NCBI GenBank assembly: GCA_024655945.1
Contig: JANLFK010000002.1
Coordinates: 242,610 to 306,609, forward strand
Reading direction: 5' to 3'
DNA: 64,000 bases
Source: Candidatus Zhuqueibacterota bacterium
Lineage (GTDB): Bacteria > Zhuqueibacterota > Zhuqueibacteria > JANLFK01 > Oleimicrobiaceae
Of this stretch, positions 8,094-28,703 are shown piece by piece. A program made the translations under genes and the position numbers. The notes under the pieces were generated by a model. It saw nothing but the letters and a program-made list of their open reading frames with translations, did not search any database and had not been told where the DNA came from. Within the stretch, counting starts at the first letter, position 1; every line of letters begins with the position of its first letter.

Positions 8094-8103
8094 CGCCTCC
8101 TGC

Positions 8104-10281: not shown

Positions 10282-10329
10282 CTTTTCCTCCACTGCACGA
10301 CTTGGTCGCTGCTCCCTGCTTGCCAACGG

Positions 10330-12267
10330 CTATTGCTGCCCTCTCGTGTAGTTCAGCAAGCCGCCGGCAAGGATGATCGCCCGCTGTCGTTCGCTCAACT
10401 CGTAGACCAACTCCAGTTCCTCGCCTGTGGCTACTTTGCGCGCTATGAGCGGTTGCCCTTTCAGCAGCCGCATCTTTAACTCGGGCAGCTCGAGTTGGTC
10501 CCCCTGGGCAAGACGCTCATAGTCCTCTTCGACCTTGAAACGCAGCGGCAGGATGCCAAAGTTGATGAGGTTGGCCGTGTGAATGCGCTCCAAGCTCTTA
10601 GCAATCACCGCCTTGACGCCGAGGTACATGGGACAGAGCGCGGCATGTTCTCTGGACGAGCCCTGGCCGTAGCTCCAACCGCCCACCACGATGTTGAACA
10701 CCCCCCTTTCCTTGTTCTTCATACAGCGCTCCGGGAAGGTAGGGTCGATCGGCTCGAACACGAAGGTTGCATACTTGGGCACGTTGGAGCGGTACTTGAG
10801 GCGCGAGCCGGCAGGCATGATGTGGTCGGTGGTGATTTTGTCGCCCACCTTCAGTGCCACTTCCACGCGCAAGGCATCTGGCAAAGGCGTGTTGGTGGGC
10901 GGGTCACCGATGTTGGGGCCACGCAGAATCGTCACCTTTTCTGGGTGCTCCGCAGGCGGAAGAATCAAACTGTCATCAATGGTGAACCGCTCCGGCATGG
11001 GGATGGCCGGATAGGGCATCCCTAAGTCGCGGGGATCGGTGATCCCGCCGGTGAGTGCACAAGCGACGGCCGTCTCCGGGCTGACCAAGTAGACCTGTGC
11101 CGACTTTGTGCCGGAGCGGCCCTCAAAGTTGCGATTGTTGGTGCGGATGGAGACGGCATTGGTGGGAGGAGCCTGGCCGTTGCCGATGCAAAAGCCGCAT
11201 GTTGCTTCCATGATGCGCGCGCCCGCGGCAATGAGGTCGCTCAGCGCGCCGCTGGCGGCAATCATGCGCAGCACCTGCTTGGACCCCGGAGCAACAACAA
11301 AGCTGACCTCCGGATGCACAGTTCGCCCTTTCAACACCGCGGCCACGGTCAGCAGGTCCTTCACCGAGGAATTCGTGCAGCTACCGATGCACACCTGGTC
11401 AACCTTGGTACCCGCTATGTCCCGAACGCGGCACACATTGTCGGGGCTGTGCGGCTTGGCAATCATCGGCTCGATGGTGGAAAGGTCCAGTTCGATCACC
11501 CGGTCATACTCGGCGTCTGGGTCAGGAGCAAGCAGCACCCACACGTGCTCGCGCCCCTGTGCCTTCAGGAATCGCCTGGTTACCTCATCGCTGGGGAAAA
11601 GCGACGTGGTCACTCCCAGTTCGGCGCCCATGTTGGTGATGGTCGCCCGCTCTGGGACCGACAGCGTGGCGATGCCTGGCCCGCCGTATTCGATCATCCA
11701 GCCCACATTGCCCTTGGTCGTGAGCATCTCAAGCACCTTGAGGATGACGTCCTTGGCGGCGACCCACGGCTGCAGTTGACCGGTGAGCAGGATCTTCAGG
11801 ACCCTTGGATAGGTGAGGTAAAAGGCGCCACCACCCATGGCCACCGCCACGTCCAGTCCGCCCGCGCCGATGGCCATCATCCCCAGGCCGCCGCCCGTGG
11901 GGGTGTGGCTGTCTGAGCCGAGCAGCGTCTTGCCCGGCACGCCAAATCGTTCCAAGTGCACCTGGTGGCAGATGCCATTTCCCGCCTTGGAGAGATAGAT
12001 CCCGTACTTGGCAGCCACCGACTGCAGGTAGCGGTGATCGTCGGCGTTCTCGAATCCGTCCTGGAGCGTGTTGTGGTCGATGTAGCTCACCGACAGCTCG
12101 GTCTTGACGCGAGGAATCCCCATGGCTTCGAACTGAAGATAGGCCATGGTGCCGGTGGCATCCTGGGTGAGCGTCTGGTCGATGCGGATAGCCACCGGCT
12201 CGCCGGCCTTCATTTGGCCTTCCACCAGGTGAGCAGCAACAATCTTTTGAACAAGATTCTGTCCCAT
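10330..12267 (-). CDS. Aconitate hydratase (aconitase family, 645 aa)
   Basis: N-terminus MGQNLVQKIVAAHL... and aconitase-family Cys ligand regions (e.g. ...CIGSCTNSS...) are present. Confidence 0.9.
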   Translation of the reverse strand: MGQNLVQKIVAAHLVEGQMKAGEPVAIRIDQTLTQDATGTMAYLQFEAMGIPRVKTELSVSYIDHNTLQDGFENADDHRYLQSVAAKYGIYLSKAGNGICHQVHLERFGVPGKTLLGSDSHTPTGGGLGMMAIGAGGLDVAVAMGGGAFYLTYPRVLKILLTGQLQPWVAAKDVILKVLEMLTTKGNVGWMIEYGGPGIATLSVPERATITNMGAELGVTTSLFPSDEVTRRFLKAQGREHVWVLLAPDPDAEYDRVIELDLSTIEPMIAKPHSPDNVCRVRDIAGTKVDQVCIGSCTNSSVKDLLTVAAVLKGRTVHPEVSFVVAPGSKQVLRMIAASGALSDLIAAGARIMEATCGFCIGNGQAPPTNAVSIRTNNRNFEGRSGTKSAQVYLVSPETAVACALTGGITDPRDLGMPYPAIPMPERFTIDDSLILPPAEHPEKVTILRGPNIGDPPTNTPLPDALRVEVALKVGDKITTDHIMPAGSRLKYRSNVPKYATFVFEPIDPTFPERCMKNKERGVFNIVVGGWSYGQGSSREHAALCPMYLGVKAVIAKSLERIHTANLINFGILPLRFKVEEDYERLAQGDQLELPELKMRLLKGQPLIARKVATGEELELVYELSERQRAIILAGGLLNYTRGQQ

Positions 12268-12318
12268 GATGGCCCTTCACACTCCTTTTCTCGACGAGGA
12301 GACACCTCGACAGGCAAA

Positions 12319-12350
12319 GGGGCTGCCCTCAAGGGCACGAGGGCAGCCCC
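12319..12350 (-). other. Perfect 12-bp inverted repeat (GGGGCUGCCCUC / GAGGGCAGCCCC, 8-nt loop) between the citrate synthase stop and the aconitase start. Candidate intercistronic stem-loop or weak terminator/attenuator.
   Basis: Seen directly in the sequence. On the minus strand it is followed only by TTTG, so it is not a strong intrinsic terminator. Confidence 0.4.
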
Positions 12351-12361
12351 AGGCCGCAAGA

Positions 12362-13642
12362 CTACGCTGCGCCGACTTGCTTCTTGACCCAATCGGTTCC
12401 TACCGACTTCGGGCGCTCGATGGGTGCACCCATGGCGCGACCGACGATCAGTTGCGCGCACATGCCCAGAGCTCGCGAGACGCCGAACAGCACCGTGTAG
12501 TAGTCGAACTCCTTGAGGCCGAAGTAGTAGAGTAGCGCCCCTGAACCGGCGTCGACATTAGGCCAGGGGTTCTTGGCCTTGCCATGGGCCTGCAGCACCT
12601 CCGGCACCACCGCAAACAGCCGGTCGACGATCTGGAACACCTTGTCCTGCGCGCAGACGCGCTTGCCAAAGGCGTGGAAAGCGGTGAAGCGTGGGTCGGT
12701 GGCCCGCAGCACCGCATGTCCATAGCCAGGAATGACCTTGCCTGAATTCAGGGTGTCCCAGGCGAACTTTTTCAGCTCCTCATCGCTGGGCACGCCTTTG
12801 TACTTCTCCAGGATCTCCAACACGAATTTCAGGCATTCCTGATTGGCGAGCCCGTGCAGAGGGCCGGCCAACCCGTTCAGTCCCGCAGAAACCGCATAGT
12901 AGGCATCCGAAAGAGCCGAGCCCACCAGGTGGCAGGTGTGAGCGCTCACGTTGCCGCTCTCGTGGTCGCTGTGCAGCACCAGGTACAGGCGCATCAAGTT
13001 GGCGAACTCCCCGGTGGGGTCATCGAACCCCAGCATGCGCACATAGTTCGCACTCCAATCCAGCTCTGGGTCGCCCTTGATAAGCTTGCCATCCTTGAAA
13101 CGGATGCGGTACACACCCGCCGCCACCGCCGGCAGCCGTGCCAAGAGATTGAGCGAGTCCTCCAGCATCGGCTCCCAGTACTCGGTCTTGGTCATGCCCT
13201 CGTCGTAGCGCTTGCGGAACAGCGATTCGCGCTCCATCACCAGGATGGCCGTGTCGAACATGGCCATGGGGTGCGAATCCTTGGGCATCGCGCGCAGCAC
13301 AGCCCACACATACTCCGGGACCTTCGCGCGCTTGGTGAACTCATTGCGCAGGTCCTCCAGAGCGGCCTTGTCGGGCAGCTCTCCGGTGCACAGCAGATAA
13401 AACACCTCCTCGGGCGTCTCGTCGGTGAGCTGGGCGATGGGTATGCCTCTGATAATGAGCCCCTTCTCTGGATCCACCAAAGAAGTGTCGCAGATCAGAG
13501 ACTTGACACCGCGCATGCCGCCGTAGGCCTGGGCCACGGTGACTTCGGAGATGACCTTGTCACCGTGGGTTTTGACCAGGTTGGCAATGTCTTCTCGCAA
13601 ACGCGGGATCTGCTCAGCCAGTTTCTGCTTCAAGGTTGCCAT
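12362..13642 (-). CDS. Citrate synthase (eukaryotic-like ~430-aa type)
   Basis: MATLKQKLAEQIPRLRED... and the overall citrate synthase signature. A strong RBS AAAGGAGGGTG lies upstream. Confidence 0.92.
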   Translation of the reverse strand: MATLKQKLAEQIPRLREDIANLVKTHGDKVISEVTVAQAYGGMRGVKSLICDTSLVDPEKGLIIRGIPIAQLTDETPEEVFYLLCTGELPDKAALEDLRNEFTKRAKVPEYVWAVLRAMPKDSHPMAMFDTAILVMERESLFRKRYDEGMTKTEYWEPMLEDSLNLLARLPAVAAGVYRIRFKDGKLIKGDPELDWSANYVRMLGFDDPTGEFANLMRLYLVLHSDHESGNVSAHTCHLVGSALSDAYYAVSAGLNGLAGPLHGLANQECLKFVLEILEKYKGVPSDEELKKFAWDTLNSGKVIPGYGHAVLRATDPRFTAFHAFGKRVCAQDKVFQIVDRLFAVVPEVLQAHGKAKNPWPNVDAGSGALLYYFGLKEFDYYTVLFGVSRALGMCAQLIVGRAMGAPIERPKSVGTDWVKKQVGAA

Positions 13643-13837: not shown

Positions 13838-14263
13838 TCAACGTGCACCCGAGGCGCGGAAGGGGCTCGGCCCAAGTCTTCTCACGGTGTCCACAAAGTT
13901 GTTGACCATCTGCTGGAACTTGGGCGCCTCGGTGGCCAGGATCCACTCTAATCGGAGCCTTCGCGGGTCAACGCCGAACTGCCGCAGCATGCTGCGCAAA
14001 AGGGCAAACCGCCGCATCGTGCGGAAGTTGCCGCCGACGTAGTGACAATCGCCTGGATGACAACCGGCGATCATCACGCCGTCGGCGCCACGGCGCAGCG
14101 CTTCGATGACAAACTCTGGCTCCACGCGCGAGGTGCACTCCATGCGCACCACGGCAAAGTTCGGCTGCATGGGCAGCCGCGCCACGCCTGCCAGGTCCGC
14201 AGCCGCATCGGCACACCAGTCACAACAAAGCACCAAAACTTTAGGTTCGAACGCCGCAGTCAC
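13838..14263 (-). CDS. mvhD: MvhD-like (methyl-viologen-reducing hydrogenase delta subunit family) [2Fe-2S] protein
   Basis: N-terminus ...PKVLVLCCDWCADAAADLAG... and the ...AGCHPGDCHY... Cys motif typical of MvhD. Confidence 0.85.
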   Translation of the reverse strand: MTAAFEPKVLVLCCDWCADAAADLAGVARLPMQPNFAVVRMECTSRVEPEFVIEALRRGADGVMIAGCHPGDCHYVGGNFRTMRRFALLRSMLRQFGVDPRRLRLEWILATEAPKFQQMVNNFVDTVRRLGPSPFRASGAR

Positions 14264-14292: not shown

Positions 14293-17200
14293 TCAGCTCA
14301 GCGCCGCGCCGATCACCGCCATGAGCTGGTCGCGGGTCCTGCCCTGCTGTCGCATGGCGCCACTGGCACAGGCCGCCACACAGCAGCCGCAGCCAGTGCA
14401 CATGGCCTGGATGACCTCGGCGCGCTCCTTGTAACGCCCGTTCTCGCGCACGCGGTTGATGCGAATGGCATCGAACTCGCAGGCGCCTTCACAGATTCGG
14501 CAACCCGTGCAGAGCTCTTCGTCAGGGTGAGCGTACACCCCTTGCCAGGACAGTTCACCGCGTGTCAGCAGTGCCGTGACCCGCGCCGCAAGGGCATGGG
14601 CATGGGTCACCGACTCGCGCAACGAGCGTGGCGAGTGCGCCAGGCCGCCGACAAACACGCCTGCGCGGGCAAGGTCAAGCGGCCGGAACTTGCTGTTGAC
14701 TTCGGCAAAAAACCCATCTTCATCCAATGGCACGCGCAATACCTTGCTCAGTCTGCCGTTCTTGGCCGCGACCACACCGGTGGAAAGAACCACCAAGTCT
14801 GCGGTGAACAGGAGCATCTCGTCGATGATCTTGTCCAGCACAAGCACTTCCAGTTTGCCATTCCGCTGTCTGACCACCGGCTTCTGGGCTAAGTCGTAGC
14901 GGAGAAAGATTACCCCGGCCTCCCTGGCCTTGGTGTAGTATTCCTCGCTGAAGCCGTAGGTCATAATGTCCCGATTGAGCACGTAGACCGCCAGGTCTGG
15001 GTTGGCCGTCTTGAGGGCAAGGGCATTCCGGATGGCCTGCGAACAGCAGATGCGGCTACAGTAGGGCCGCCGCTCATCGCGGGAGCCCACACACTGAATC
15101 ATGACCACGCACTTGAGCCGCGAGGGGTTCAGTTTGCCCTTGGCGAGCCGTTGCTCCAGCTGGGTCTGGGTGAGCACCCGGCGGTTTTTCCCATACAGGT
15201 ACTCCTTGGGTTGGTACTCGACGGCACCTGTGGCCACCACCACCACCCCATGCTGCAGCTGGCGCTTCGCCCCGGAGGCCCGCCGCACCGTCGTGCGGAA
15301 GTTGCCCACGAACCCATCAAGACGTGTGACCTCCGAGCGGAGATGGACGGTGATGCGCGGATTGGCTCTGACCTTCTCGATAGTCTTCCGCACAAAATCG
15401 GCGACGTCCAGTCCCTCCAGGGTGCGGTCGAAGAGCAGCGCGTTGCCCCCGAGCTCTCCGCTTTTCTCCACCAAGTGGACGGCGAAGCCCTGGGCGGCGA
15501 TGTCCAGGGCGGCAACCATGCCGGTCACCCCGCCGCCGATGACCAGCGCCCGGGGCGTGACCTTGAGCACGCCCGGCGGTGCGGCAGTCGTGCTGCGCAG
15601 GCGCATGGCCGCTGCGTGGAGCAGGAACCTTGCCTTCTCGAGTGCCATTCCGCGGTCGGCGTGAATCCAGCCCACCTGCTCCCGCAACGGAACTACCTCC
15701 AACATGCGGCGATCAACTCCTGCCTCCGCCAACATCTGGGCGAAACGGTCTTCGTACAGGTGAGGTGAGCAGGCGCCAAACAGCACCCGGTTCAGCCCCT
15801 GCGCTCGGATGGCCTCTTTGACCCCCGCCAGGGTCGACTGGAAGCAGAGCAGGTCCACCACCGCTACATGCGCAACTCCGGGGAGGTTCCTTGCCGCACT
15901 GGCCAAGGCCTGCAGGTCGAGAACCTCCCCGACCTCTCCCTGGCACCTGCAGAGAAAGACTCCAATGCGCGCTTCTGCGCCTCGATGCTCTGCGGGGCTC
16001 AACGCCTGGTGTGCGCCGCCATGGTCACGCCGGCCAGGCTTGACCACGAGGGCTGCTTGTGCGGCAGCGGCAAGGCCCTGCGCCACGCTCTCGGGAATAT
16101 CGCGGGGCGCAGTCAGCGCGCCACAGGCAAAGACCCCGGCCCTTCCGGTGCTCACCGCAGAGAAGCCCGGGTACGAGACAAAGCCGTGCCGGTTCACCTT
16201 TGCCCCTATGGCCGAGGCAAGCGCGGCGCTCTGCTCGGCAGGGCCCAATCCCACCGAAAGAACCACCAGTTCGAACTCGCGCCGCTGGAATGAGCTGTCC
16301 TCGGCCTCGTACACCACGACCAGATTCTTGCTCGCCGGGTGTTCCTCCACCGCGGACACGCGGCAGCGCGTGAACGCCACTCCCAGTTCCTGTTGGGCCT
16401 TCTGATACACGCGGTGATACCCCTTGCCGAAGGCACGCACGTCCATGTAGAAGATCTGCGACTGTATTCCTGCCGCCTTGAGGTGCGCTGCCTCCTTGAT
16501 GGCAAACATGCAGCACGCCGACGAGCAGTAGTCGTGCTCGGCGTCCCGGGAGCCCACGCACTGGAGAAAAGCCACCGAAGCCGGAACTTTGCCGTCGGAG
16601 GGACGGCGCACGGCCCCTTGCGTCGGCCCGCCCTCGCTGGTGAGCCGCTCCAGCTCGGTGCTGGTCACCACGTTAGCAAATCGGCCATAGCCAAACTGAC
16701 TCAGCGAGGAGGGGTCAAATTCTTTGAACCCAAGGGCAGCCACAATCGCCCCGACGTGGAGGTACTGGGTGGTCGGTCCGGCATCCAGGGAGATGGCGCC
16801 GGTGGGGCAAATGCGCACGCATTCACCGCAGCGCGTGCAAGCGGCCGCGTCGATGGTGTACAGGCGCGGAATACCCAAGCCGTGGCGCACGTACACCGCC
16901 TTGCGCACGCTCAGCCCCTGGTTGAACTCGTCCTGGACCTCCACTGGACATACCGGAATGCAGCGGCCACACGTGATGCACTTTTCCGGGTCCACAAACT
17001 GCGGGCTCGTCACCATGGTGGCCACGAAGGCGCCAGGCTTGCCTTCCAGCGCGGTGAGCTGGCTATCAAAGACCACCTTGACGTTCGGGTAGAGGAGCCC
17101 ACGCCGCAAGCAGAAGCCGGACACCCCTTCACCGGGCACGGCCGGCAATAGCTTGCACAAGCCGCAATCGTCGGTAGGGAACAGCCTGTCGAGCTGCAGC

Positions 17201-17340
17201 ACCTTGCCGCCTAGCATCGACGACTGGTCCACCAGGTAGACGGGCACCCCCATGTCCGCCAGTTCGATGGCGGCGCGAATCCCGGCAACGCCTGCTCCCA
17301 CCACCAGGACTGCTTGAGTCTTCTCGCTTCGCTCCGCCAC
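14293..17340 (-). CDS. hdrA: HdrA-family flavin/Fe-S protein (heterodisulfide reductase subunit A-like). Unusually large at 1015 aa, with two HdrA-like FAD modules and an internal MvhD-like segment.
   Basis: Two dinucleotide-binding GxGxxG motifs (VVGAGVAGIRAA, VIGGGVTGMVAAL). Several CxxCxxCxxxCP ferredoxin motifs. An internal ...RIGVFLCRCQGEVG... MvhD-like region. Confidence 0.9.
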   Translation of the reverse strand: MAERSEKTQAVLVVGAGVAGIRAAIELADMGVPVYLVDQSSMLGGKVLQLDRLFPTDDCGLCKLLPAVPGEGVSGFCLRRGLLYPNVKVVFDSQLTALEGKPGAFVATMVTSPQFVDPEKCITCGRCIPVCPVEVQDEFNQGLSVRKAVYVRHGLGIPRLYTIDAAACTRCGECVRICPTGAISLDAGPTTQYLHVGAIVAALGFKEFDPSSLSQFGYGRFANVVTSTELERLTSEGGPTQGAVRRPSDGKVPASVAFLQCVGSRDAEHDYCSSACCMFAIKEAAHLKAAGIQSQIFYMDVRAFGKGYHRVYQKAQQELGVAFTRCRVSAVEEHPASKNLVVVYEAEDSSFQRREFELVVLSVGLGPAEQSAALASAIGAKVNRHGFVSYPGFSAVSTGRAGVFACGALTAPRDIPESVAQGLAAAAQAALVVKPGRRDHGGAHQALSPAEHRGAEARIGVFLCRCQGEVGEVLDLQALASAARNLPGVAHVAVVDLLCFQSTLAGVKEAIRAQGLNRVLFGACSPHLYEDRFAQMLAEAGVDRRMLEVVPLREQVGWIHADRGMALEKARFLLHAAAMRLRSTTAAPPGVLKVTPRALVIGGGVTGMVAALDIAAQGFAVHLVEKSGELGGNALLFDRTLEGLDVADFVRKTIEKVRANPRITVHLRSEVTRLDGFVGNFRTTVRRASGAKRQLQHGVVVVATGAVEYQPKEYLYGKNRRVLTQTQLEQRLAKGKLNPSRLKCVVMIQCVGSRDERRPYCSRICCSQAIRNALALKTANPDLAVYVLNRDIMTYGFSEEYYTKAREAGVIFLRYDLAQKPVVRQRNGKLEVLVLDKIIDEMLLFTADLVVLSTGVVAAKNGRLSKVLRVPLDEDGFFAEVNSKFRPLDLARAGVFVGGLAHSPRSLRESVTHAHALAARVTALLTRGELSWQGVYAHPDEELCTGCRICEGACEFDAIRINRVRENGRYKERAEVIQAMCTGCGCCVAACASGAMRQQGRTRDQLMAVIGAALS

Positions 17341-17377
17341 GTGCGTCGTCCCTCGCGCTTCTGTTGGTGGATATCCC

Positions 17378-18265
17378 TTAGGCGGCAGCCGCCGGTGACA
17401 CCTTGGCCAAAACCGCGTCTGGCCGCACCTTGTTCAGGCGGACCCCAAGGTCCTTCGGGTCGTACCCCATGGCAAGTCCCAAGACCTGGGGATAGAAAAA
17501 GACCGGAAGGGCGATTTCACGCTGGAACTGCTCTTCCACCTTCTTCTGGTTGTCCTCGTAGAGCACGCTGCAGAACGGGCAGATGGAGATGAGCGCGTCG
17601 GCCCCGGCAGCCCGCACATCACTCAACTTCAGGCCCGACAGTCCAAGCGCCGTCGTCTGCTCCACACCTAAGATGGCGCCACCGCAGCAGTACTTCTTGG
17701 TCTCGTAGCGGATAACTTCGGCCCCGGTGACAGCCACCAGCTCGTCCAAAGAGCGCGCCGCCTCGGGGTCGTCGAAAGCGTCATAGTTCCCTTTTGGGCG
17801 CACGAAGTGGCAACCATAATGCGGAGCCAGTTTCAGCGTCGTCAGGGGTCTGGTCACGTGCCGACGCAAATTGTCGATGCCATAGTCTTCGTACAGAATT
17901 CGCGCAAAGTGTTTCACTTTGACCGTGCCCCGGTACTGGCGATTGATCTTGCGCAGCTGGCGGTTCACCTGTCGCAACAGTTCAGGGTGCTGCTGCAGCT
18001 CGAGATTGGTCTCGGTGAGCACCGCCGAACATGCGCTGCACAGGCAGCAGACGTCCAGCCCTTGCTCCTCGGCCACCGCCAAGTTGCGCGCCGCCATGAG
18101 CAGAGTGGTCTGCGCATTGGTGGACTTGACAGGAAAGCCGCAACAGGAGAAATCCTCCACGTCCACCAACTCGATCCCCAGCCCGCTGGCAACCGCCCGC
18201 ACGGCCACTTCATAGTTCTGGCTGCGGATCGGCACCGTGCAGCCGAGAAAGAGGGCGTACTTCAT
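17378..18265 (-). CDS. hdrB: HdrB-family protein (two CCG domains)
   Basis: MKYALFLGCTVP... N-terminus and CCG motifs (...FSCCGFP...). Confidence 0.88.
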   Translation of the reverse strand: MKYALFLGCTVPIRSQNYEVAVRAVASGLGIELVDVEDFSCCGFPVKSTNAQTTLLMAARNLAVAEEQGLDVCCLCSACSAVLTETNLELQQHPELLRQVNRQLRKINRQYRGTVKVKHFARILYEDYGIDNLRRHVTRPLTTLKLAPHYGCHFVRPKGNYDAFDDPEAARSLDELVAVTGAEVIRYETKKYCCGGAILGVEQTTALGLSGLKLSDVRAAGADALISICPFCSVLYEDNQKKVEEQFQREIALPVFFYPQVLGLAMGYDPKDLGVRLNKVRPDAVLAKVSPAAAA

Positions 18266-18825
18266 GGCTGATTGGCCTCCGCCGCTTCGGTGTACTTGCC
18301 CATCCCGGTCATGCGAAAGATCTCCTGCACCTCGGGGAATGTCTTCCTGACCGGGGGAAGGCCTAAGCGCTGGCGCTTCTTGTTGTCAAAATCCTCCACC
18401 TCATAGAGGCGGCCAAACCTGCCCACTAACTCCGCCTGCTGGCGGAAAGTGGGGTGCAAATAGCCCTCGCGCGCAGCGATGTTCTTCACGGCAGTCATGA
18501 TATCGGTCACGCGCACCCCTTGCGGACAACGGTCGGCGCAGGTGTAGCAGCCAGAGCAAAGCCAGATGAAGTCACTGCTCAGCACCCGCTCCCTCATGCC
18601 CAGCAAGATCATATGCACCAGCTGCCGGGGATTGTAGCGCGCGTCCACGGCGTGCACGGGACAGGCGGCTGTGCACGTGCCGCAGGCAAAACAGCGCGCA
18701 CTGAGCTCGCCCCCTGGCTCCTTAGCAACCTCTCGCCAGAAGCTGGGGGTCAACTCCTCGAATCTGGTCATCGGCTTGCTGCCCTTCACGTTCGCCACGG
18801 TCAAGCTCCTCATCGCCTGCGTCAT
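18262..18825 (-). CDS. hdrC: HdrC-family 2x[4Fe-4S] protein
   Basis: Motifs CFACGTCTAACP and CSGCYTCADRCP. 4-nt overlap with hdrB. The start may be the internal Met at about 18771. Confidence 0.82.
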   Translation of the reverse strand: MTQAMRSLTVANVKGSKPMTRFEELTPSFWREVAKEPGGELSARCFACGTCTAACPVHAVDARYNPRQLVHMILLGMRERVLSSDFIWLCSGCYTCADRCPQGVRVTDIMTAVKNIAAREGYLHPTFRQQAELVGRFGRLYEVEDFDNKKRQRLGLPPVRKTFPEVQEIFRMTGMGKYTEAAEANQP

Positions 18826-19875
18826 CTACCGTGCGTTCATAATGGCCATGGAAAAGTCCTCGGCGGTCACGCCTGGCGTTTCCACTTCGTGTTCATCGCA
18901 GAATTCGCCCACCCGCTGCACAATGTCCTCGGGCTGGCGCTTTATCCCCTTCAGGGAGTTCTCCAAGCCAGCCAGTTCCTCCTTGGGATAGAAGGTGAAA
19001 TCGCCGGAAATGCCGAGGTCTTTGATGCGCTCCCGCTCCACCTCCTGCACCGTGCGGATCAGGCCGCCTGGGGCCTTGTGGATGCCGAAGGAGATCTCCA
19101 CGCCCTCCCGGATCTTCACCCCTGTGGCCACGCGCGGCGTCTTCTTGAAGAGGAACTCGGGGGAATTGAACTCCTGCTCCAGCCGCGCCATGGTCGCCCA
19201 AAGCTCGCTGGTCATCTCGGCCGGCTCCAGGGGGCCCACCAGCCGCGTGAAGTGCCGCACCAAGGCGCGCTTGATCTCTTCGCGAGGGGGCAGAGCACCG
19301 AGCTCGCGCTTCATGGTGGTGAGGTTCTCCTCCATGCTCTTGAAAATCTTGTCGCGAAACTTTTCCTCCGGCACCTTGAGCACGCGCACCATGGTCTCAT
19401 AGTCAAAATCCAAGAGGATGCCGCCGACGAAAACCATGCAATCGCCGATGTTAGCGCCGCCTTCGCCGGCGATCTTCCGCCCTTCGCCGGTGACGATGTC
19501 ATTGACCGGCCGGAAGCGGGCCTTGATGCCGAACTCGCGATAGGTCTCCACCGGAGCCTGGGAGAACCACTCGTAGATTTCGCTGATTTTCTTGGGGAAG
19601 TGGGGGTTGGAGCGTCGCCAGATGAGCTGGTAGAAGATCTGGTTCCCATCCAGATAGGTGGTGCCGCCGCCTACCTCGCGGCGCATGGCGGGAATTTTCA
19701 CCTTCTCCAAATACTCCAGGTCAATCTCCTGCTTGGCGTCCTGGAAGTAGCCGATGCTCACCAGCGGGTCTTGCGGCGAGACGATGACCAGGCTCTCCAC
19801 GCCCATGCGCGCCAAGGCGTGGAAGATGAGCATCGAATTCTGACCGGGAAGCTTGTCCAAGTAAAAGAGCTGCAT
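18826..19875 (-). CDS. Lipoate/octanoate-protein ligase family protein (BPL/LplA/LipB catalytic domain plus LplA-type C-terminal domain)
   Basis: Start at MQLFYLD, preceded by GGAGG. A conserved ...GRKIAGEGG... lysine region resembles the LplA active-site Lys. Embedded between hdrC and the glcF-like gene. Confidence 0.78.
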   Translation of the reverse strand: MQLFYLDKLPGQNSMLIFHALARMGVESLVIVSPQDPLVSIGYFQDAKQEIDLEYLEKVKIPAMRREVGGGTTYLDGNQIFYQLIWRRSNPHFPKKISEIYEWFSQAPVETYREFGIKARFRPVNDIVTGEGRKIAGEGGANIGDCMVFVGGILLDFDYETMVRVLKVPEEKFRDKIFKSMEENLTTMKRELGALPPREEIKRALVRHFTRLVGPLEPAEMTSELWATMARLEQEFNSPEFLFKKTPRVATGVKIREGVEISFGIHKAPGGLIRTVQEVERERIKDLGISGDFTFYPKEELAGLENSLKGIKRQPEDIVQRVGEFCDEHEVETPGVTAEDFSMAIMNAR

Positions 19876-19965: not shown

Positions 19966-21045
19966 TCAAGCGCCAGCCGAGCGCAGCGCGTCCCACACCA
20001 AGTCTGCCACGTCGCGCACGACGATGTCGCCCTCCCCTGCCTCAGCCAAAGACGTAGCGCCCTTCTTGAGGGTTTGCTCGCAGGTGGCACAAGAGGTGAC
20101 GATGGTCTTCGCCCCTGTGGCCATGGCCTGACGCACCCGGTTGCGCGCCAATTGCGCGGAGAGCTGCTCGTTGGAGGAAAGAATGCCGCCACCGCCACCG
20201 CAGCAGCGCGTGGTGTTCTTGCTCTTCGGCATCTCCTTCACTTCCGCGCCAATCGCGCTCAGCACGCGCCGCGGCTCTTCCACCACCTTGGCACCGCGCG
20301 CCAAGTCACACGGGTCATGATAGGTGACCGTCACTTCCAGCTTCTTGACCTTGTCGGCCGGGAGCTTTTCGGCCACCGCCTGCAAGAAGTGGCGCGTCGG
20401 GATACCGTACTCCTCTTTGAGGAAAACCGTGCAGGTGGGACAGAAGGTGATGGTGGGCTCTTTGGCCAGCATCTGGGCCAAGCGCTTCTTGTGCTCCTCG
20501 AATTTGTGCACAAAGCCCAGAGAGACCAGGGGAAACCCGCAGCAGATCTCCTCCTGCACTTTGGGCTTGAGGCCGATCATCTCGAGTATCTTGAGGTACT
20601 TTTTCACCTTATTCGGCCGCGCCAAGAACTGGCAGCCGATGAATACGCGCACCTCCCCCTCCTGCTTGGGCAACATCACTTCCTGGTCCCCGAAGATGTT
20701 GCCCGAGGCCATCACGTTCTCTGCCAGCATGATCTGGCCGGGGAAGGCCAGCCCCATGTCCACCAGCTCGGCGCGCGCCGCCCGCACGATCTGCGGCACT
20801 TTGACCTTGGAGGGGCAGCGCCGCTCGCAGTCCCCGCACATGGTGCATTCGTAGATCCTCTGCGCCACGCTTTCGTCCGCCTGGATCTCGCCGGTGAGCA
20901 TGCCGTACGCCAAGATGTTGCGCCCCCGTGCCGAGGTGCCATCCCAAAGAATCTCGTCAAAGGGCGGACAGACGTTCTTGCAGTACCCGCACAGAGTGCA
21001 GGTGATGAGTTCGTTCAGCCACGGTTTCAGATATTCGCCTTTCAT
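19966..21045 (-). CDS. HdrD/GlcF-like Fe-S protein: 2x[4Fe-4S] plus two CCG domains (glycolate oxidase Fe-S subunit / LutA / Dld-II partner family)
   Basis: CTLCGYCKNVCPP and CTMCGDCERRCP motifs, ICCGFP and CCGGGGG CCG motifs. Its ATG overlaps the glcD-like TGA stop (ATGA), and a GGAGGTG RBS is present. Confidence 0.85.
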   Translation of the reverse strand: MKGEYLKPWLNELITCTLCGYCKNVCPPFDEILWDGTSARGRNILAYGMLTGEIQADESVAQRIYECTMCGDCERRCPSKVKVPQIVRAARAELVDMGLAFPGQIMLAENVMASGNIFGDQEVMLPKQEGEVRVFIGCQFLARPNKVKKYLKILEMIGLKPKVQEEICCGFPLVSLGFVHKFEEHKKRLAQMLAKEPTITFCPTCTVFLKEEYGIPTRHFLQAVAEKLPADKVKKLEVTVTYHDPCDLARGAKVVEEPRRVLSAIGAEVKEMPKSKNTTRCCGGGGGILSSNEQLSAQLARNRVRQAMATGAKTIVTSCATCEQTLKKGATSLAEAGEGDIVVRDVADLVWDALRSAGA

Positions 21046-22478
21046 TGCGACACCTCCACAGGGTACCGTAGGTGGGTGATGAACCCATTTTCCCACTCCT
21101 GAATCTTGTGCGGGTTCATGATGTTGTTTGGGTCCAAAGCGCGTTTGACAGCCTTCATCGCCGCGATCAAGCTGGCGCGCTCCTGGCGGAAGTACGGCGT
21201 CTTGGTAATGCCAATGCCATGCTCACCGGTCACCGTGCCGCCCAGCTCCAGCACAATGTCATAGATTTCCTGCACTGCCTTGTCCGCCTGCCGCCAGTGG
21301 TCCGGGTTGGTGGGATCCATGAGCACTTTGGTGTGCAGATTGCCATCACCGGCGTGGCCGTAGGCGGGGATTTCGATGTCGTAGCGGTCCGAGACCTCCT
21401 GGAAGCGCACCACCGCCTCCGGCACTTTGGAGATGGGCACGGACATATCATCAGCGAGCATCACCGTGGCGTATTCTTCGCGCAGGGCGCTCAGCGAGGG
21501 GATCATCTGCTTGCGCCCCTTCCACAGCTCCTCCAGGCGCTTGGGGTCCTCACTAAAGTCCATGGACACGGCGTTGTTCTTCTTGCACACCTCGGTGACC
21601 TTTGCCAGCTCCTCCCGCACCGCCTGCAGATTGTTCCCGTCCACTTCGATGAGCAGGATGGCATCGACCTCGGGCAGCCCCAGGCCGGTGGCCTTGTTGA
21701 CCGCCTTGATGCAGGTGCCCGACATCAGCTCCATGTTCGACGGCAGGATAGGCACAGCGATGATGTCGGACACCGTTTGCCCTGCCTCGCGGATATGGGC
21801 AAACGCCGCTACGCACCCTGCGCGGTAGGTGGCCAAGGGCACCAGCTTGAGGGTGATTTCGGTGACGATGCCCAAGGTTCCTTCCGAGCCGACGAAGAGC
21901 TTCTCGAACTGGTAGCCGCTGGCCCCCTTCACTGAACGGGCACCGCACCGGGCAATATCGCCGGTGGGCAACACCACCTCCAGGCCAAGCACGACGTCCC
22001 GCGTGGCCCCGTACTTCAGAGCCTTATCACCCGAGGCGTTACAAGCAACCATGCCGCCAAGCGTTGCCGCCTCGCTGCTGGCAGGACCGGGGATGAAGAA
22101 CTTGTACTTTTTCAGGGCCGCGTTTAGGTGGTCGCACACCACCCCTGGCTCCACCACGCAGATCAGGTCCTCGACGCAGATCTCTTTGATCTTCTTCATG
22201 CGCTGCAGGTCGACCACCACGCCGTGGTCGATGGGCACCGAATGTCCACAGAGGGCGGTGCCGGCACCGCGCGGCACCACGGGGAATTTGAATTCGTTGG
22301 CCAGCTTCACGATCTGGGCGACCTCCTGCGTGTTGATCGGCTGCACGACCACATCCGGCACCTCGCGGTGGATGCCACCGTCAAAGGCGTAGACGTAGCG
22401 CTCGGCGATGCTGGTCTTGCAGCGGTCTTCGCCCACAATGCTCTGCAGTCGTGCGATGACCTCTTTCTTGAGCGCCAT
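21042..22478 (-). CDS. FAD-linked oxidase, GlcD / D-lactate dehydrogenase family (FAD_binding_4 plus C-terminal domain)
   Basis: MALKKEVIARLQSIVGEDR... and the GlcD-like FAD-binding region. Confidence 0.86.
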   Translation of the reverse strand: MALKKEVIARLQSIVGEDRCKTSIAERYVYAFDGGIHREVPDVVVQPINTQEVAQIVKLANEFKFPVVPRGAGTALCGHSVPIDHGVVVDLQRMKKIKEICVEDLICVVEPGVVCDHLNAALKKYKFFIPGPASSEAATLGGMVACNASGDKALKYGATRDVVLGLEVVLPTGDIARCGARSVKGASGYQFEKLFVGSEGTLGIVTEITLKLVPLATYRAGCVAAFAHIREAGQTVSDIIAVPILPSNMELMSGTCIKAVNKATGLGLPEVDAILLIEVDGNNLQAVREELAKVTEVCKKNNAVSMDFSEDPKRLEELWKGRKQMIPSLSALREEYATVMLADDMSVPISKVPEAVVRFQEVSDRYDIEIPAYGHAGDGNLHTKVLMDPTNPDHWRQADKAVQEIYDIVLELGGTVTGEHGIGITKTPYFRQERASLIAAMKAVKRALDPNNIMNPHKIQEWENGFITHLRYPVEVSQ

Positions 22479-22512: not shown

Positions 22513-23759
22513 TCAATCCAACAGTGGCACGGTGATGCTGCCATCCATCAAGAAGATCACCTGACAATCAGGTCCTTTTTCTGCCAGCGCCTCGTCCAAG
22601 GCCTCCTGCACGCTGCGGAACGGCTTGATGAAGATTGCCTCAAGGTCCTTGTCCGGCAGGTCGGTGACCCCCCAGACCTGTGCCCAGGTATTGATCTCCG
22701 CCATCTTCGCTGCCTTGTGATAGCCGAGTTTGAACTCCTTGCCGATTCTTTCGATGGTGGCCCGGGGGGAGTCGCAACTGGAAAGCAGATCGAAAAAAGT
22801 GCGCTCGCCGATGCCGGTGCGGCACTTGGAGACCATGATGAGAATCCCGCCCTCTTTGAGCGCTAACTTTCCGTTGTCCAAGGCCTTCTGCGATTGATAA
22901 AGGTCCACATCCATTGGGTAGGGTGCCACCGAGACCACCACATCGGCCTTGCCGCGGATTTTCACGGTAAAGACCTCGTTGGCCTTGGCAATGCACGCGC
23001 GGAAGGAAGCATGGAGATCGCCTGCTGCTGCTGCATAAATACGCCGGTCCCGATCCAGGACCGTTTGGATGGAAAAGATCTCCTTGTCGGCGATGCTGCG
23101 CAAGGCATCGATCATGTCCTCGTGCACCGGGTTGCCTTCCAGCACCAGCGCCTTAGCCTCCAGGCGCAGCGCGTGCTTGTGGTTCTGCTCAATGGTCGCA
23201 TAGGAGGCAATGCCCGGGAGGAAGGACTTGCGGCCGCCCGTGTAGCCGGCAAAATAGTGGGGCTCCACCGAGCCGATGATGACAATCTTGTCCGCCTCCA
23301 CGCCCATGCGGTTGACGTACATTTCGGTGCCGTTCACCGAGGTGCCGATGTGCACCATCTCCTCCTGCTTGCGGCAGTCGTGGACGTAGATGCGATCTTT
23401 CAAGTAGGGATAATGACGCCCAAAGATAAAGTCGTATTCCTCCTGCGTCGGTGCCCGGTGCACACCGGTGGCAATCAAGAAACGGCTTTTTGTGAGAGGA
23501 ATCTTCGGCTGCAGGATGTCGAGTATCTTGGCGGTAGGAGTGGGGCGCGTGCCGTCGTTGACAATGAAAAGAACGTCTCGGGCGTCAGACAGGAATTCGT
23601 CGAACGGGCGCGATTGCAGCGGCGACGAGATTGCCGCCATGAGTGTTGCCATCTCATCGCCGACCACTACAGAGTTGGGGTGAAGCACGTGCATCACGTG
23701 GTGGTCGGCGATCTCCACCTGCTGCGCCTCTCTGCCGTACGGGATCGCAAGTCTCACCG
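22513..23759 (-). CDS. LarA-family (nickel-pincer-nucleotide-dependent lactate racemase-like, DUF2088) protein
   Basis: Architecture and length are typical of LarA homologs. GTG start chosen at VRLAIPYG, with GGAGAG 7 nt upstream. A long Arg-rich N-terminal extension from the first ATG was rejected. Confidence 0.75.
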
Positions 23760-23851: not shown

Positions 23852-24286
23852 CTACTTCTTCTTTTCGCGCTCCACCCGCTCCTTCTCACCTTCAAGGTAC
23901 TTGGGGATGTCGCCAATCTTCATGAGGCCGGCAAGCTGGGCATCCAAGTCAGAGGCCTCGATGACCATGATCCACCCGTCACCATAGGGGGACTTGTTAA
24001 TCAGGTTGGCCGTATCCTCGAGGGCGTTGTTCACCTCGGCAATGGTGCCGGTGAGTGGGCTGACGATTTTGCCCACCCACTTGCTGGATTGCAGCTTGCC
24101 CACCGTCTCCCCTTCAGAGACCTCGTCGCCTTCGAAAGGCAGGTCCACGTAGACGATCTCCCCTGAGAGCTTTTGGTAAAAGTCCGTCATCCCCACTCTG
24201 GCGCGGCCATCGCCCTCGGGCTTGACCCAAGTGTGCTCCCTGTGGTAGTAGAGATCGTCCGGGTAGTCGTAACCTTCAATTTCCAT
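23852..24286 (-). CDS. GcvH-family lipoyl-carrier protein (glycine-cleavage H protein / LbpA-like). First gene of the operon.
   Basis: Start at MEIEGYDYPDDLYYHREHTWVK with a GGAGGGAGCC RBS. Lipoyl-lysine context ...GKLQSSKWVGKIVSPLTGTI... matches the GcvH E-S-V-K-A region. Confidence 0.85.
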   Translation of the reverse strand: MEIEGYDYPDDLYYHREHTWVKPEGDGRARVGMTDFYQKLSGEIVYVDLPFEGDEVSEGETVGKLQSSKWVGKIVSPLTGTIAEVNNALEDTANLINKSPYGDGWIMVIEASDLDAQLAGLMKIGDIPKYLEGEKERVEREKKK

Positions 24287-24408: not shown

Positions 24409-24437
24409 ATTATACAAAATTCCCCCCTCAAAGTCAA
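24409..24437 (-). promoter_or_regulatory. Near-consensus sigma70 promoter for the gcvH-larA-glcDF-lplA-hdrCBA-mvhD operon: -35 TTGACT (24437..24432), 17-bp spacer, TG-TATAAT -10 (24414..24409).
   Basis: The minus strand reads GCTTGACTTTGAGGGGGGAATTTTGTATAATAGCGC. These AT-rich hexamers stand out in a >60% GC background, about 120 nt upstream of the gcvH ATG. Confidence 0.6.
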
Positions 24438-24706: not shown

Positions 24707-25549
24707 ATGAGGCGCAGTATGAACGACCAGGCTCGGCAACAGGAGAGCATTCGCACCATCATCAGCCAACGAGGGTTGCGCTATGCCGGCGATTCTCCGC
24801 TGGACAACGTGCTCTTGCCGGAGCCAGCAGACCCGCAGGCGTGTCAGGAATTCCTCCGATTCATGAAGCGCTATTCCTTCCGCTTGCTGCTGCGGGATGT
24901 CATCAAGTACCGCGCCGGCTTTCGCGCCGAGGACCTGCTGCACTACTGCTCGCCGCGCAAGGCCCAGCGCTACGTCGACTACTTGCTCCGGGCAAGGGTG
25001 ATTGCCCCAGGCGAAAGTCAAGACACCTTCCGGCTGCGAAACCAGGCGGTGTACAGTTTCGGGGACACCTTAGAGTGGTACGTGGCGCAGCTCTTTGCCC
25101 AGGCCTTTGCCGCCACTGTGGGCTGGGACGTCAAGGTCTACGATTTGCCGGCAGGCGGCGACTTTGACGTGGTTGCCCTCTTGGGTGAGCTGCTGGTCTA
25201 CGTGGAGACCAAGTCCAGCCCACCCAAGAACATCCATCAGCCGGTGGTGGCCGCCTTCTTCGACCGCGTCGAGGCTTTGGCGCCAGATGTGGCCATCTTT
25301 CTGGTGGACACCCACCTGCGCCTGGCTGACAAGATCAACAAGATGGTGCGCCACGAGCTCAGACGCAGGACAGGAGGCCAGGCGACGGTCAACTTGCGAC
25401 CACTACGCCGTGGCGTGTACGCGGCCTCGGCCGGGCTGTTCGTCATCAACGGCAAGCCGGACTTGACACTGAATCTGCGTCTCTGTTTGCGGCACTTTTG
25501 GGCGCAGCGCGCCCGACAACGGCTGTTTGGCTTGGCACCACAGGAGTGA
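24707..25549 (+). CDS. Hypothetical protein: N-terminal winged-helix-like region plus a C-terminal PD-(D/E)xK-like (Mrr-type) nuclease motif
   Basis: Trimmed from ORF 24173..25549 to MRRSMNDQ; the upstream part overlaps the divergent promoter and gcvH. Motif ...GGDFDVVALLGELLVYVETKSS... fits a D...ExK arrangement. An alternative start at 24566 is possible. Confidence 0.5.
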   Translation: MRRSMNDQARQQESIRTIISQRGLRYAGDSPLDNVLLPEPADPQACQEFLRFMKRYSFRLLLRDVIKYRAGFRAEDLLHYCSPRKAQRYVDYLLRARVIAPGESQDTFRLRNQAVYSFGDTLEWYVAQLFAQAFAATVGWDVKVYDLPAGGDFDVVALLGELLVYVETKSSPPKNIHQPVVAAFFDRVEALAPDVAIFLVDTHLRLADKINKMVRHELRRRTGGQATVNLRPLRRGVYAASAGLFVINGKPDLTLNLRLCLRHFWAQRARQRLFGLAPQE

Positions 25550-27593: not shown

Positions 27594-28703
27594 GTGGCAA
27601 GCGAACGCTGCAAGCTCTGCGGTCAGCCAGGATTAGTCAGTCGGGCCCTGGGCGTCTGTGCCAGCTGCATAGTGCAGCGGGAGGTGCAGGCAAAGGAATT
27701 CGTGCGGCAGGCGCATCGTGCGGCGCGCCGACCCTTTGATGTGCCCGACGAAATGCCCAGGGCCGCAGAGGGTGTGGGTTGCAAGGGGTGTGGCAACAAT
27801 TGCCGCATGCCCCTTGGCGGGCGCGGCTACTGCGGGCTGCGGCGCAACGAGGGCGGCAGGCTCATGCAACTGGCGGGCACGCCGCGCGGCGCCCTGGTGA
27901 GCTGGTACCACGACCCCCTGCCCACCAATTGCGTGGCAAGCTGGGTCTGTCCAGCCGGCGCAGAAGTCGGCTATCCCGATTTCCCCTATGCTCCCGGGCC
28001 TGAGTACGGCTACACAAACCTCGCCGTCTTCTACAAGGCGTGTAGCTTTGATTGCCTGTTCTGCCAGAACTGGCACTACCGGGAAGCAAAGCCCACCAAC
28101 AGACAGCGCTCTGCGCAGGAGCTGGCAGCAGCCGTGGACCGGCGAACCGCCTGCATCTGTTACTTCGGCGGTGACCCTGCGCCTCAAGTGGCGCACGCCT
28201 TGGCCGCCTCGCGTCTTGCGCTCCGTGCCAACGCAGGGCGGCCGCTGCGCATCTGCTGGGAGACAAACGGCAGCGTCGGCCTCCCTGCGCTGCGCAAGAT
28301 GGCGGATCTCTCCCTGCGCAGCGGCGGCTGCATCAAGATCGACCTCAAAGCCTTCACGCCGCAGCTGCACGAGGCGCTGTGCGGCACGAGCAACGCCCAG
28401 ACCATAGCGAATGTGGCCTGGCTGGCAAGGCTCGCCCGGCAACGCCCCTCCGTGCCCCTCCTTGTGGTCAGCACTCTGCTTGTTCCGGGCTACGTGGAGG
28501 CCGACGAGGTTCGTCGCATTGCCGGCTTTATCGCCTCCCTGCACCAGGACACGCCCTATTCGCTGCTCGCCTTTTACCCCCAGTTCTTCATGAGTGACCT
28601 TCCTGCAACTTCGCGGGAACAGGCCTACTCCTGCGTGGAGGCGGCACGGGCTGCCGGGCTGCGGCGCGTCCACTTGGGCAACCAGCACCTGCTGGGCCTG
28701 TAG
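27594..28703 (+). CDS. Radical SAM protein, PflA / AmmeMemoRadiSam-like, with an extra N-terminal Cys-rich (Zn-ribbon-like) segment
   Basis: CxxxCxxC core ...ACSFDCLFCQNWHY.... N-terminal CKLCGQ...CASC. The start codon may be a nearby GTG. Confidence 0.75.
   Translation: MASERCKLCGQPGLVSRALGVCASCIVQREVQAKEFVRQAHRAARRPFDVPDEMPRAAEGVGCKGCGNNCRMPLGGRGYCGLRRNEGGRLMQLAGTPRGALVSWYHDPLPTNCVASWVCPAGAEVGYPDFPYAPGPEYGYTNLAVFYKACSFDCLFCQNWHYREAKPTNRQRSAQELAAAVDRRTACICYFGGDPAPQVAHALAASRLALRANAGRPLRICWETNGSVGLPALRKMADLSLRSGGCIKIDLKAFTPQLHEALCGTSNAQTIANVAWLARLARQRPSVPLLVVSTLLVPGYVEADEVRRIAGFIASLHQDTPYSLLAFYPQFFMSDLPATSREQAYSCVEAARAAGLRRVHLGNQHLLGL

Follow-up and report, generated by a model that had tools for sequence, protein, structure and literature searches.

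The closest described counterpart of the gene examined here is the ligase of the sHdr-LbpA-sLpl(AB) system, in which cluster-encoded ligases specifically modify the lipoyl carrier associated with a heterodisulfide reductase (Hdr) (PMC6067878, PMC10332631). In Hyphomicrobium denitrificans and Thioalkalivibrio (Cao et al., 2018; Tanabe et al., 2023), the sHdr system combines an Hdr complex with CCG-domain subunits, a GcvH-like carrier and a fused Lpl(AB) ligase, which reportedly does not accept the lipoyl domain of Escherichia coli. A similar combination is found in a 64,000-nucleotide stretch of DNA (contig JANLFK010000002.1, positions 242,610–306,609; hereafter the window) from a Candidatus Zhuqueibacterota bacterium, a bacterial host of the FCB group, where a gene for a lipoate/octanoate-protein ligase (lplA) is embedded among genes for GcvH, a GlcD/GlcF-like dehydrogenase, HdrABC and MvhD. 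The identity of the ligase with an intact active site, the structure of the operon and the clade-specific synteny across phyla are directly supported by the sequence comparisons described below. The explanation of the whole that we favor, with some reserve, is that a dedicated ligase loads the H-protein (GcvH) of the operon, which would carry a dithiol/disulfide between the GlcD/GlcF-like enzyme and HdrABC-MvhD. The new part is the presence of this logic (an Hdr, a lipoyl carrier and its own ligase), earlier known from sHdr, in modules that combine a bifurcating-type Hdr with a 2-hydroxyacid dehydrogenase.

Other described systems share parts of this arrangement. MvhADG/HdrABC of methanogens has the HdrA, HdrB (two CCG domains), HdrC and MvhD set that is present here. 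However, the hosts here are non-methanogens, their clusters include a ligase and a flavoprotein dehydrogenase, and we propose as substrate the intramolecular disulfide of a protein-bound lipoyl group, not the heterodisulfide of coenzymes M and B (CoM-S-S-CoB). The HdrD/GlcD and LDH-Etf lactate-oxidizing complexes also pair a GlcD-type flavoprotein with a CCG iron-sulfur subunit, and in both the oxidation of lactate (∼−190 mV) is eased by coupling to a disulfide or by confurcation (PMC6421429, PMC3949148). According to one proposal, lactate oxidation by HdrD/GlcD is coupled to the reduction of a disulfide (PMC6421429), and a thiol/disulfide intermediate has been proposed for a lactate dehydrogenase of Desulfovibrio (PMC3949148), but these descriptions are without a lipoyl carrier or ligase and leave the thiol/disulfide partner unnamed. 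GcvH is encoded with HdrB/HdrA2B2C2 in Culexarchaeia, which are without coenzymes M and B, and Kohtz et al. (2022) speculated that it might act there as the disulfide partner of HdrB (PMC9723716). Staphylococcus aureus likewise has a non-housekeeping operon, GcvH-L/LplA2, in which a specialized second H-protein is encoded together with an LplA-family ligase of its own, along with SirTM and a macrodomain protein (PMC4518038, PMC12440151). That operon reportedly differs in being regulated by ADP-ribosylation, in serving oxidative-stress defense, in being without Hdr, CCG and GlcD proteins, and in having a ligase of the bacterial LplA clade. The full-text literature searched, from which most subscription journals are missing, contained no account of a clade of LplA-type ligases that resides in GlcD/Hdr clusters of anaerobes.

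The ligase gene and its domains are as follows.

18826–19875, minus strand: lplA, a 349-residue Lpl(AB)-type lipoate/octanoate-protein ligase (Pfam, NCBIfam and alignment)
Residues ∼26–209 of the ligase: catalytic domain (Pfam/NCBIfam)
Residues ∼264–348 of the ligase: LplB-like accessory domain at the C-terminus (Pfam/NCBIfam)

The gene begins with an ATG at 19875, just downstream of a GGAGG box, and ends with a TAG that abuts the ATG of hdrC at 18825 with no gap. The catalytic domain matches Pfam LplA-B_cat (PF21948/PF03099 fold) over residues 26–209 (E value of 4.4e-36, 125 bits, cut-off 27). The accessory domain only marginally exceeds the cut-off of Pfam Lip_prot_lig_C (28.1 bits versus 24) and falls slightly short of that of the NCBIfam model for LplB, the archaeal small subunit (60.7 bits versus 65, model positions 1–85 of 86). 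GRKIAGEGG, the conserved lysine region that an earlier sequence-only reading of this DNA had pointed out in an LplA-family gene, corresponds to residues 132–140. Within it, the catalytic Lys134 aligns with the lipoyl-AMP-binding lysines of the ligases of Thermoplasma acidophilum, of the Streptococcus pneumoniae type (PDB code 1vqz) and of Escherichia coli LplA. RREVGGG (residues 65–71) aligns with RRSSGGG and corresponds to the RRxxGGG motif. Both the catalytic lysine and RRxxGGG are invariant in all 21 family members aligned. As these residues align with those of LplAs of known structure and are invariant in the family, the protein is a genuine member of the LplA family of ligases, its active site is intact, and the recognition of the gene stands. 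The fold families, the catalytic lysine and RRxxGGG are shared with canonical E. coli LplA and with the bipartite LplA/LplB of T. acidophilum, and the domain order is that of the E. coli enzyme. Unlike in canonical LplA, the accessory domain is closer to the archaeal LplB model than to the bacterial C-terminal Pfam model, and the gene resides in an energy-metabolism operon.

Sequence identity is 24% to E. coli LplA and 24–30% to characterized ligases in general, and the best matches in the PDB have E values of 1e-19 to 1e-22. All NCBIfam matches are to ligase models, each below its curated cut-off; TIGR00545 (lipoyltrans), for example, gives 135.9 bits against a cut-off of 280. No match to the NCBIfam LipB, LipM or LipL models was found at E ≤ 0.001. 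Classification with hidden Markov models (HMMs), which had been suggested along with the earlier reading, thus places the protein in the LplA family with an accessory domain, and apart from LipB, LipM and LipL, although it stays below every NCBIfam ligase cut-off. Given the low identity to E. coli LplA, the weak PDB E values and the sub-cut-off NCBIfam scores, the ligase belongs to a diverged subfamily and is not a canonical LplA equivalog. The gene is recognized by a protein-family match, not by a chance pattern. Searching a plasmid collection with the ligase returned generic LplAs only, at no more than 32% identity.

The same divergence could mean that the protein is no working lipoate ligase, but an LplA-fold protein that attaches another acyl group, removes lipoate, or serves Hdr as a structural or chaperone subunit. 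Its scores below all curated ligase cut-offs, its limited identity to characterized enzymes, and its retention beside HdrC even where no GcvH is nearby, as in WOR-3, would fit such a role. However, all known lipoyl-AMP-binding residues are invariant, including the catalytic lysine and RRxxGGG, the protein has kept the accessory domain that adenylation requires, and the closest outgroups lie in bona fide lipoate-assembly clusters. We give this alternative little credence, and consider it very probable that the gene encodes a functional lipoate/octanoate-protein ligase.

Homologues of the ligase number in the thousands, and the best 120 are all 62–66% identical to it. We scanned one genome per species for orthologs and obtained 80 loci (55–96% identity). 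They belong to Thermodesulfobacteriota (many of them Syntrophaceae), Zixibacteria, Aerophobetes, TA06, WOR-3, Stahlbacteria, Caldisericota, Acidobacteriota, Hydrothermota and Thermoplasmatota archaea. The ligase belongs to a tight clade (55–66% identity) that is spread over more than 10 bacterial phyla and the Thermoplasmatota. HMMs built from the proteins of the window operon were then compared with all open reading frames (ORFs) of these loci. Module genes within 6 kb of the ligase were scored in the 64 loci whose flanks reach at least 6 kb; 46 of these loci (72%) have one or more, distributed as follows.

GlcD within 6 kb of the ligase: 39 of 64 loci
CCG-type iron-sulfur protein within 6 kb of the ligase: 39 of 64 loci
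GcvH within 6 kb of the ligase: 22 of 64 loci
HdrA/MvhD within 6 kb of the ligase: 22 of 64 loci

The immediate same-strand neighbor of the ligase is a module gene in 39 of 76 loci, most often HdrC downstream (19), followed by GlcD upstream (13), a CCG protein upstream (13) and GcvH upstream (6).

Outgroups were sought among 1.8 billion cluster representatives (50% identity), where a single sequence (461 bits) stands for the whole ligase clade. The next best score, 319 bits, comes from a relative with 45% identity, and scores then fall gradually; the nearest outgroups share 43–45% identity with the ligase. Neither Hdr nor GlcD is found near any of the five outgroups whose contexts were examined. 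Two are part of clusters with the order Lpl, GcvH, Lpl, FAD protein and two radical SAM proteins, which correspond to the Lpl-GcvH-radical SAM (LipS1/S2-type) lipoate-assembly clusters described by Tanabe et al. (2023; PMC10332631); one adjoins the E2 gene of a 2-oxoacid dehydrogenase; and two have unrelated contexts. The module-linked ligases are monophyletic with respect to the outgroups in a neighbor-joining tree, and the module context is already seen in the deepest branches of the clade (Caldisericota and Aerophobetes). By this comparison, the association with GlcD, CCG, Hdr and GcvH proteins is specific to this ligase clade. Loci without module genes are mainly those of a compact deltaproteobacterial subclade (L006, L009, L014, L019, L020, L021, L028, L029, L031 and L079), which has lost the Hdr/GlcD context and in which the ligase is accompanied by genes for a Lpd-like flavoprotein (a pyridine-nucleotide disulfide oxidoreductase), a peroxiredoxin, and MBL, MOSC, HAD-like and DUF364 proteins (for example, L020, 5530–12467). 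This subclade looks like a secondary paralogue, and one genome, MAG130, has both a copy in this group (L019) and another clade member (L003); its setting could be that of a lipoyl-dependent peroxidase.

The window has a G+C content of 59–65%, and nearly all long coding-like ORFs near the ligase are on the minus strand. Nine of them form an apparent operon with intergenic gaps of −4 to 94 bp, in the order gcvH, larA-like, glcD, glcF/hdrD-like, lplA, hdrC, hdrB, hdrA and mvhD. The sequence-only reading had placed the ligase gene between hdrC and a glcF-like gene, which agrees with the positions of the genes downstream and upstream of it. The remaining features, in transcription order, are:

24409–24437, minus strand: sigma-70-like promoter match, TTGACT-17-TATAAT (11/12), ∼120 bp 5′ of gcvH, a consensus match only
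23852–24286, minus strand: gcvH, 144-residue GcvH-type lipoyl carrier, first gene of the operon (TIGR00527)
22513–23757, minus strand: larA-like, LarA-family nickel-pincer 2-hydroxyacid racemase (Pfam/NCBIfam)
21042–22478, minus strand: glcD, GlcD-family FAD-linked D-2-hydroxyacid dehydrogenase (Pfam/NCBIfam)
19966–21045, minus strand: glcF/hdrD/tfrB-like, iron-sulfur subunit with Fer4 and two CCG domains (motif scan, Pfam, NCBIfam)
18262–18825, minus strand: hdrC, HdrC-like subunit with two [4Fe-4S] motifs
17378–18265, minus strand: hdrB, HdrB-like subunit with two complete CCG-domain motifs
14293–17340, minus strand: hdrA, 1015-residue HdrA-like flavo-iron-sulfur protein with duplicated HdrA architecture and ferredoxin inserts
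13838–14263, minus strand: mvhD, MvhD/FlpD electron-transfer subunit, last gene of the operon

The promoter match upstream of gcvH is the only sigma-70-like one in 11.8 kb, and we propose that lplA is translated from the same transcript as gcvH. With its two-CCG HdrB, HdrC with two [4Fe-4S] motifs, HdrA flavoprotein and MvhD, the component set of HdrABC-MvhD is complete. HdrA scores 795 bits against the HdrA2 model, below its cut-off, as do all Hdr and MvhD proteins against the NCBIfam equivalogs, which is expected for a non-methanogen host. The GlcF-like protein contains two CxxCxxCxxxC motifs and two complete CCG-domain cysteine motifs; its best NCBIfam match is the thiol-oxidizing TfrB. Two CCG-domain motifs are the ligand set of the noncubane clusters that reduce disulfides. 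The operon thus encodes two putative disulfide-active sites of the CCG type, one in the GlcF-like protein and the other in HdrB.

The H-protein has its lipoyl lysine at position 69, followed by Trp70. The 12 module H-proteins that were aligned all have a tryptophan in this position, within the site S-x-K-W-[VL]-G-K. This K-W site also occurs in the H-proteins of two LipS-type outgroup clusters (L082, 2975–3397; L085, 2510–2941), while the lipoyl site of E. coli GcvH (ESVKAASD) is without it. The lineage of the ligase and the type of the carrier thus vary together, as would suit a ligase and its cognate acceptor, and K-W may be the feature by which ligases of the Lpl(AB) lineage recognize their carriers. 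The H-protein is probably the acceptor of the ligase, and the dedication of the ligase to the H-protein of the module is the reading that we consider the better one. The earlier suggestion of a dedicated maturation enzyme for the GcvH-like carrier of the operon thus gains support from the synteny of the clade, the contexts of the outgroups and the shared K-W site. One 543-residue ORF (L016, 4294–5925) contains Fer4, two CCG and GCV_H domains. It is most likely an indel or assembly artefact rather than a real CCG::GcvH fusion, since the same Nanopore-style contig has split genes and its best 120 homologues (∼368 residues, 65% query cover) are all unfused.

A possible further likeness to sHdr is that the nearest outgroups of the ligase (45% identity) lie in LipS1/S2-type clusters, the group into which sLpl(AB) reportedly falls. 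Differences from sHdr are the following. HdrA is of the long (1015 residues), bifurcating type with ferredoxin inserts and is encoded next to MvhD. There is a single HdrCB pair, together with the GlcD/GlcF-like dehydrogenase and the LarA racemase, whereas shdr clusters have a short HdrA and are hdrC1B1A-hyp-hdrC2B2 or of type II. No sulfurtransferase domain (TusA, DsrE or Rhd) was found in any of the window ORFs scanned, nor was LipS1/LipS2 or LipT; instead, the window encodes a canonical LipA. Cysteines are absent from the H-protein, whereas LbpA is defined by two strictly conserved ones (PMC6067878), and the H-protein is therefore not an LbpA. Furthermore, the hosts here are anaerobes or fermenters rather than sulfur oxidizers. 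Judged by its long HdrA with MvhD, single HdrCB pair, cysteine-free carrier, and absence of sulfurtransferases and LipS1/S2/LipT, the locus is not an sHdr sulfur-oxidation locus. The analogy to sLpl ligases that the sequence-only reading had drawn is upheld for the joint occurrence of Hdr, lipoyl carrier and own ligase.

The only other lipoylation gene found in the window is unlinked to the operon, 18 kb off:

38049–38915, minus strand: lipA, LipA lipoyl synthase (TIGR00510, 375 bits, cut-off 310)

Its separate position had been noted before, as had the lack of lipB. Consistent with the latter, the coding-like ORFs of the window include no LipB, LipM, LipL, second LplA or second GcvH, and a six-frame search of the window with its own LplA and GcvH and with E. 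coli LplA returned no second LplA or H-protein. No lipoyl acceptor other than the operon GcvH, E2 included, is encoded in the window.

LplA, GcvH and the unlinked LipA could together constitute a general lipoylation pathway, with GcvH as a relay as in Bacillus and Staphylococcus, and the position in the Hdr/GlcDF block would then signify co-expression only. Lpl/LipA combinations are a known assembly route (PMC10332631), the LipA of the window is canonical, the H-protein passes the curated GcvH cut-offs, one outgroup relative adjoins an E2 gene, and the paralogous subclade and several other loci have no Hdr/GlcD context. Such a housekeeping hub would leave unexplained the same-strand synteny with GlcD, CCG and Hdr genes that is specific to this clade across more than 10 phyla and two domains. 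A LipL-type amidotransferase, E2, GcvT and GcvP are all absent from the window, and none of them recurs in the 80 loci. Additionally, some genomes have a second, different LplA beside the module (L069) or two copies from the clade (MAG130). We consider the hub unlikely, while granting it some weight, and prefer a ligase dedicated to the H-protein of the module. The second LplA-type protein of L069 (Thermoplasmatales; 17262–18824) is encoded directly after the module HdrA. Another locus, L082, encodes an LplA-B_cat domain fused to DUF116 (1392–2984) in a LipS-type cluster; both proteins are 520–530 residues long.

The combination of GlcD, GlcF and GcvH also recalls C2/glycine metabolism, in which a glycolate oxidase would supply glyoxylate and then glycine, GcvH and the ligase would serve glycine cleavage or a reductive glycine route, and Hdr would be an electron sink. 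GlcD is indeed the best model for the flavoprotein (407 bits, below the cut-off of 568), and the H-protein is canonical by HMM score. However, coding-like ORFs of the window include no Lpd, GcvT or GcvP, and none of the three genes is among the recurrent neighbors of ligase orthologs in the 80 loci. Candidates of 450–480 residues in WOR-3 (482 and 453 residues, encoded upstream of glcD), considered as GcvPA/PB, were rejected: one is a histidine kinase, the other a sigma-54 response regulator. The iron-sulfur subunit is nearer to TfrB/HdrD-type models than to E. coli GlcF (147 versus 74 bits), and the LarA-type racemase and the GntR/FCD regulators found at related loci point to lactate- or malate-type substrates. 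With no gcvT or gcvP in the window or recurrently in the 80 loci, the locus is not a glycine-cleavage operon, and a role in C2/glycine metabolism is highly improbable.

The module around the ligase occurs in three recurrent versions. Syntrophaceae and other deltaproteobacteria have the order GntR/FCD regulator, GlcD, CCG protein, GcvH, CCG protein, a 282-residue protein and LplA. In Syntrophaceae (13 loci; for example, L081, 8810–9658), the gene for the conserved 282-residue protein separates lplA from the second CCG gene. The protein has no Pfam match and weakly resembles the C-terminal membrane part of QmoC; it could anchor this version in the membrane and so link it to quinones. In WOR-3 and Stahlbacteria, a sigma-54 two-component system is followed by GlcD, LplA, HdrC, HdrB, a 706-residue HdrA::MvhD fusion, and the small and large subunits of a [NiFe] hydrogenase (for this arrangement: L050, 12648–17300 region; L071, 15839–17302; L075, 7110–8075). 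The order in Thermoplasmatota is hydrogenase protease, MvhD, GlcD, GlcF-like protein, LplA, HdrC, HdrB and a giant HdrA with a GltD/NfnB-like module. The WOR-3, Stahlbacteria and Thermoplasmatota versions all include subunits of an Mvh-type [NiFe] hydrogenase. The giant HdrA (1244–1650 residues) of Thermoplasmatota and Caldisericota contains Fer4_20 and Pyr_redox_2 domains (L034, 3947–8650; L040, 12415–17367; L080, 12560–16294), a GltD/NfnB-like combination that suggests NAD(P)H as a partner of these Hdr complexes. Lipoyl domains were sought inside the giant HdrA/MvhD fusions, and none was found. Identities between the window and the archaeal locus L040 are 59% for LplA, 66% for HdrC, 55% for HdrB, 47% for GlcF and 45% for GlcD, and such high values in every subunit suggest that a cassette including the ligase moved between the two domains.

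From this evidence we infer which acceptor the ligase serves, that lipoyl-GcvH acts as a redox carrier, which way the electrons flow and which 2-hydroxyacid is the substrate. The ligase would activate lipoate or octanoate to the acyl-AMP and transfer the acyl group to Lys69 of the H-protein; in the case of octanoate, the unlinked LipA would insert two sulfurs to yield lipoyl-GcvH. The lipoylated H-protein would then be not a subunit of glycine cleavage, but a protein-bound dithiol/disulfide that joins the two CCG-type sites and shuttles two electrons between them. At one end of the shuttle, the GlcD/GlcF-like protein would act as a D-2-hydroxyacid dehydrogenase on lactate or malate, fed by the LarA-type racemase. 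At the other, HdrB of a bifurcating or confurcating HdrABC-MvhD would use lipoyl-GcvH in place of CoM-S-S-CoB. The idea that these Hdr/GlcDF enzymes use lipoyl-GcvH as their disulfide substrate is a tentative proposal, to which we attach rather less confidence than to the dedication of the ligase. The same caution applies to its extension across non-methanogenic anaerobes (Syntrophaceae, WOR-3, Stahlbacteria, Aerophobetes, Caldisericota, Zhuqueibacterota and Thermoplasmatota), where lipoamide on GcvH might be the physiological “heterodisulfide” of HdrABC-MvhD (with Mvh hydrogenase) and of GlcD/HdrD-like dehydrogenases, the ligase clade making this substrate and the unit moving between Bacteria and Archaea as a cassette.

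Malate, rather than lactate, may be the substrate. This is hinted at by a citrate synthase gene after the module (in the window and in L030), a citrate-binding ATP-grasp protein in Syntrophaceae, and the best NCBIfam match of the LarA-like racemase, which is to the malate racemase LarAH6 (379 bits, below the cut-off of 500). The citrate synthase gene of the window lies directly downstream of the operon with genes for aconitase and isocitrate dehydrogenase (9082–13642), that of L030 is at 7134–8435, and the ATP-grasp protein is encoded upstream of the module in 8 Syntrophaceae loci (for example, L012, 1072–2331).

The standard potentials are about −290 mV for lipoamide, −190 mV for pyruvate/lactate and about −170 mV for oxaloacetate/malate, compared to −414 mV for H+/H2 and about −450 to −500 mV for ferredoxin. 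A scheme in which H2 or NAD(P)H drives bifurcation to ferredoxin and lipoyl-GcvH, and a 2-oxoacid is then reduced, is thus feasible but tight, with a small driving force, and the same is true of the reverse scheme, a confurcating oxidation of lactate or malate.

Several observations weigh against the proposed carrier scheme. Bifurcation would be merely marginally exergonic, because lipoamide is a much weaker oxidant than CoM-S-S-CoB. GcvH is found within 6 kb of the ligase in just 22 of the 64 loci, and not within 10 kb of it in the WOR-3 and Stahlbacteria loci. Module genes are missing from the vicinity of the ligase in 18 of the 64 loci, including the compact deltaproteobacterial subclade. 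The H-protein, moreover, appears inseparable by its sequence from a bona fide glycine-cleavage H-protein, as its scores exceed the curated GcvH cut-offs (TIGR00527, 128.2 versus 115.85 bits; NF002270, 129.4 versus 117 bits).

Further genes were recorded in the window. A gene divergent from gcvH (24719–25549, plus strand) encodes a 276-residue protein with no Pfam match. The only radical SAM gene near the operon (27594–28703, plus strand) has weak similarity to AmmeMemoRadiSam/activase proteins and was, on this account, rejected as a LipS1/S2 candidate. At 2604–5793, the gene for a tungsten-type aldehyde:ferredoxin oxidoreductase overlaps by 17 nucleotides with that for a fusion of a DeoC-like aldolase with a 2×[4Fe-4S] ferredoxin.

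Many non-methanogens encode HdrABC/MvhD or HdrD/GlcD, yet cannot make coenzyme M or coenzyme B. To our knowledge, DsrC answers the question of which disulfide their Hdr complexes use for sulfate reducers only. A ligase clade that travels with Hdr complexes and a carrier names a concrete candidate for this disulfide, lipoyl-GcvH. If this is true, the role of lipoate in sHdr sulfur oxidation would extend to reductive and fermentative electron-bifurcating metabolism, and there would be a mechanism by which syntrophs and fermenters oxidize lactate or malate, an energetically difficult reaction. As an annotation marker, this LplA clade together with H-proteins of the K-W type would flag such modules in metagenomes. 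The pairing of ligase and carrier, recurrent in many anaerobic bacteria and archaea, suggests that protein-bound lipoate may be the missing disulfide of these heterodisulfide reductase complexes.

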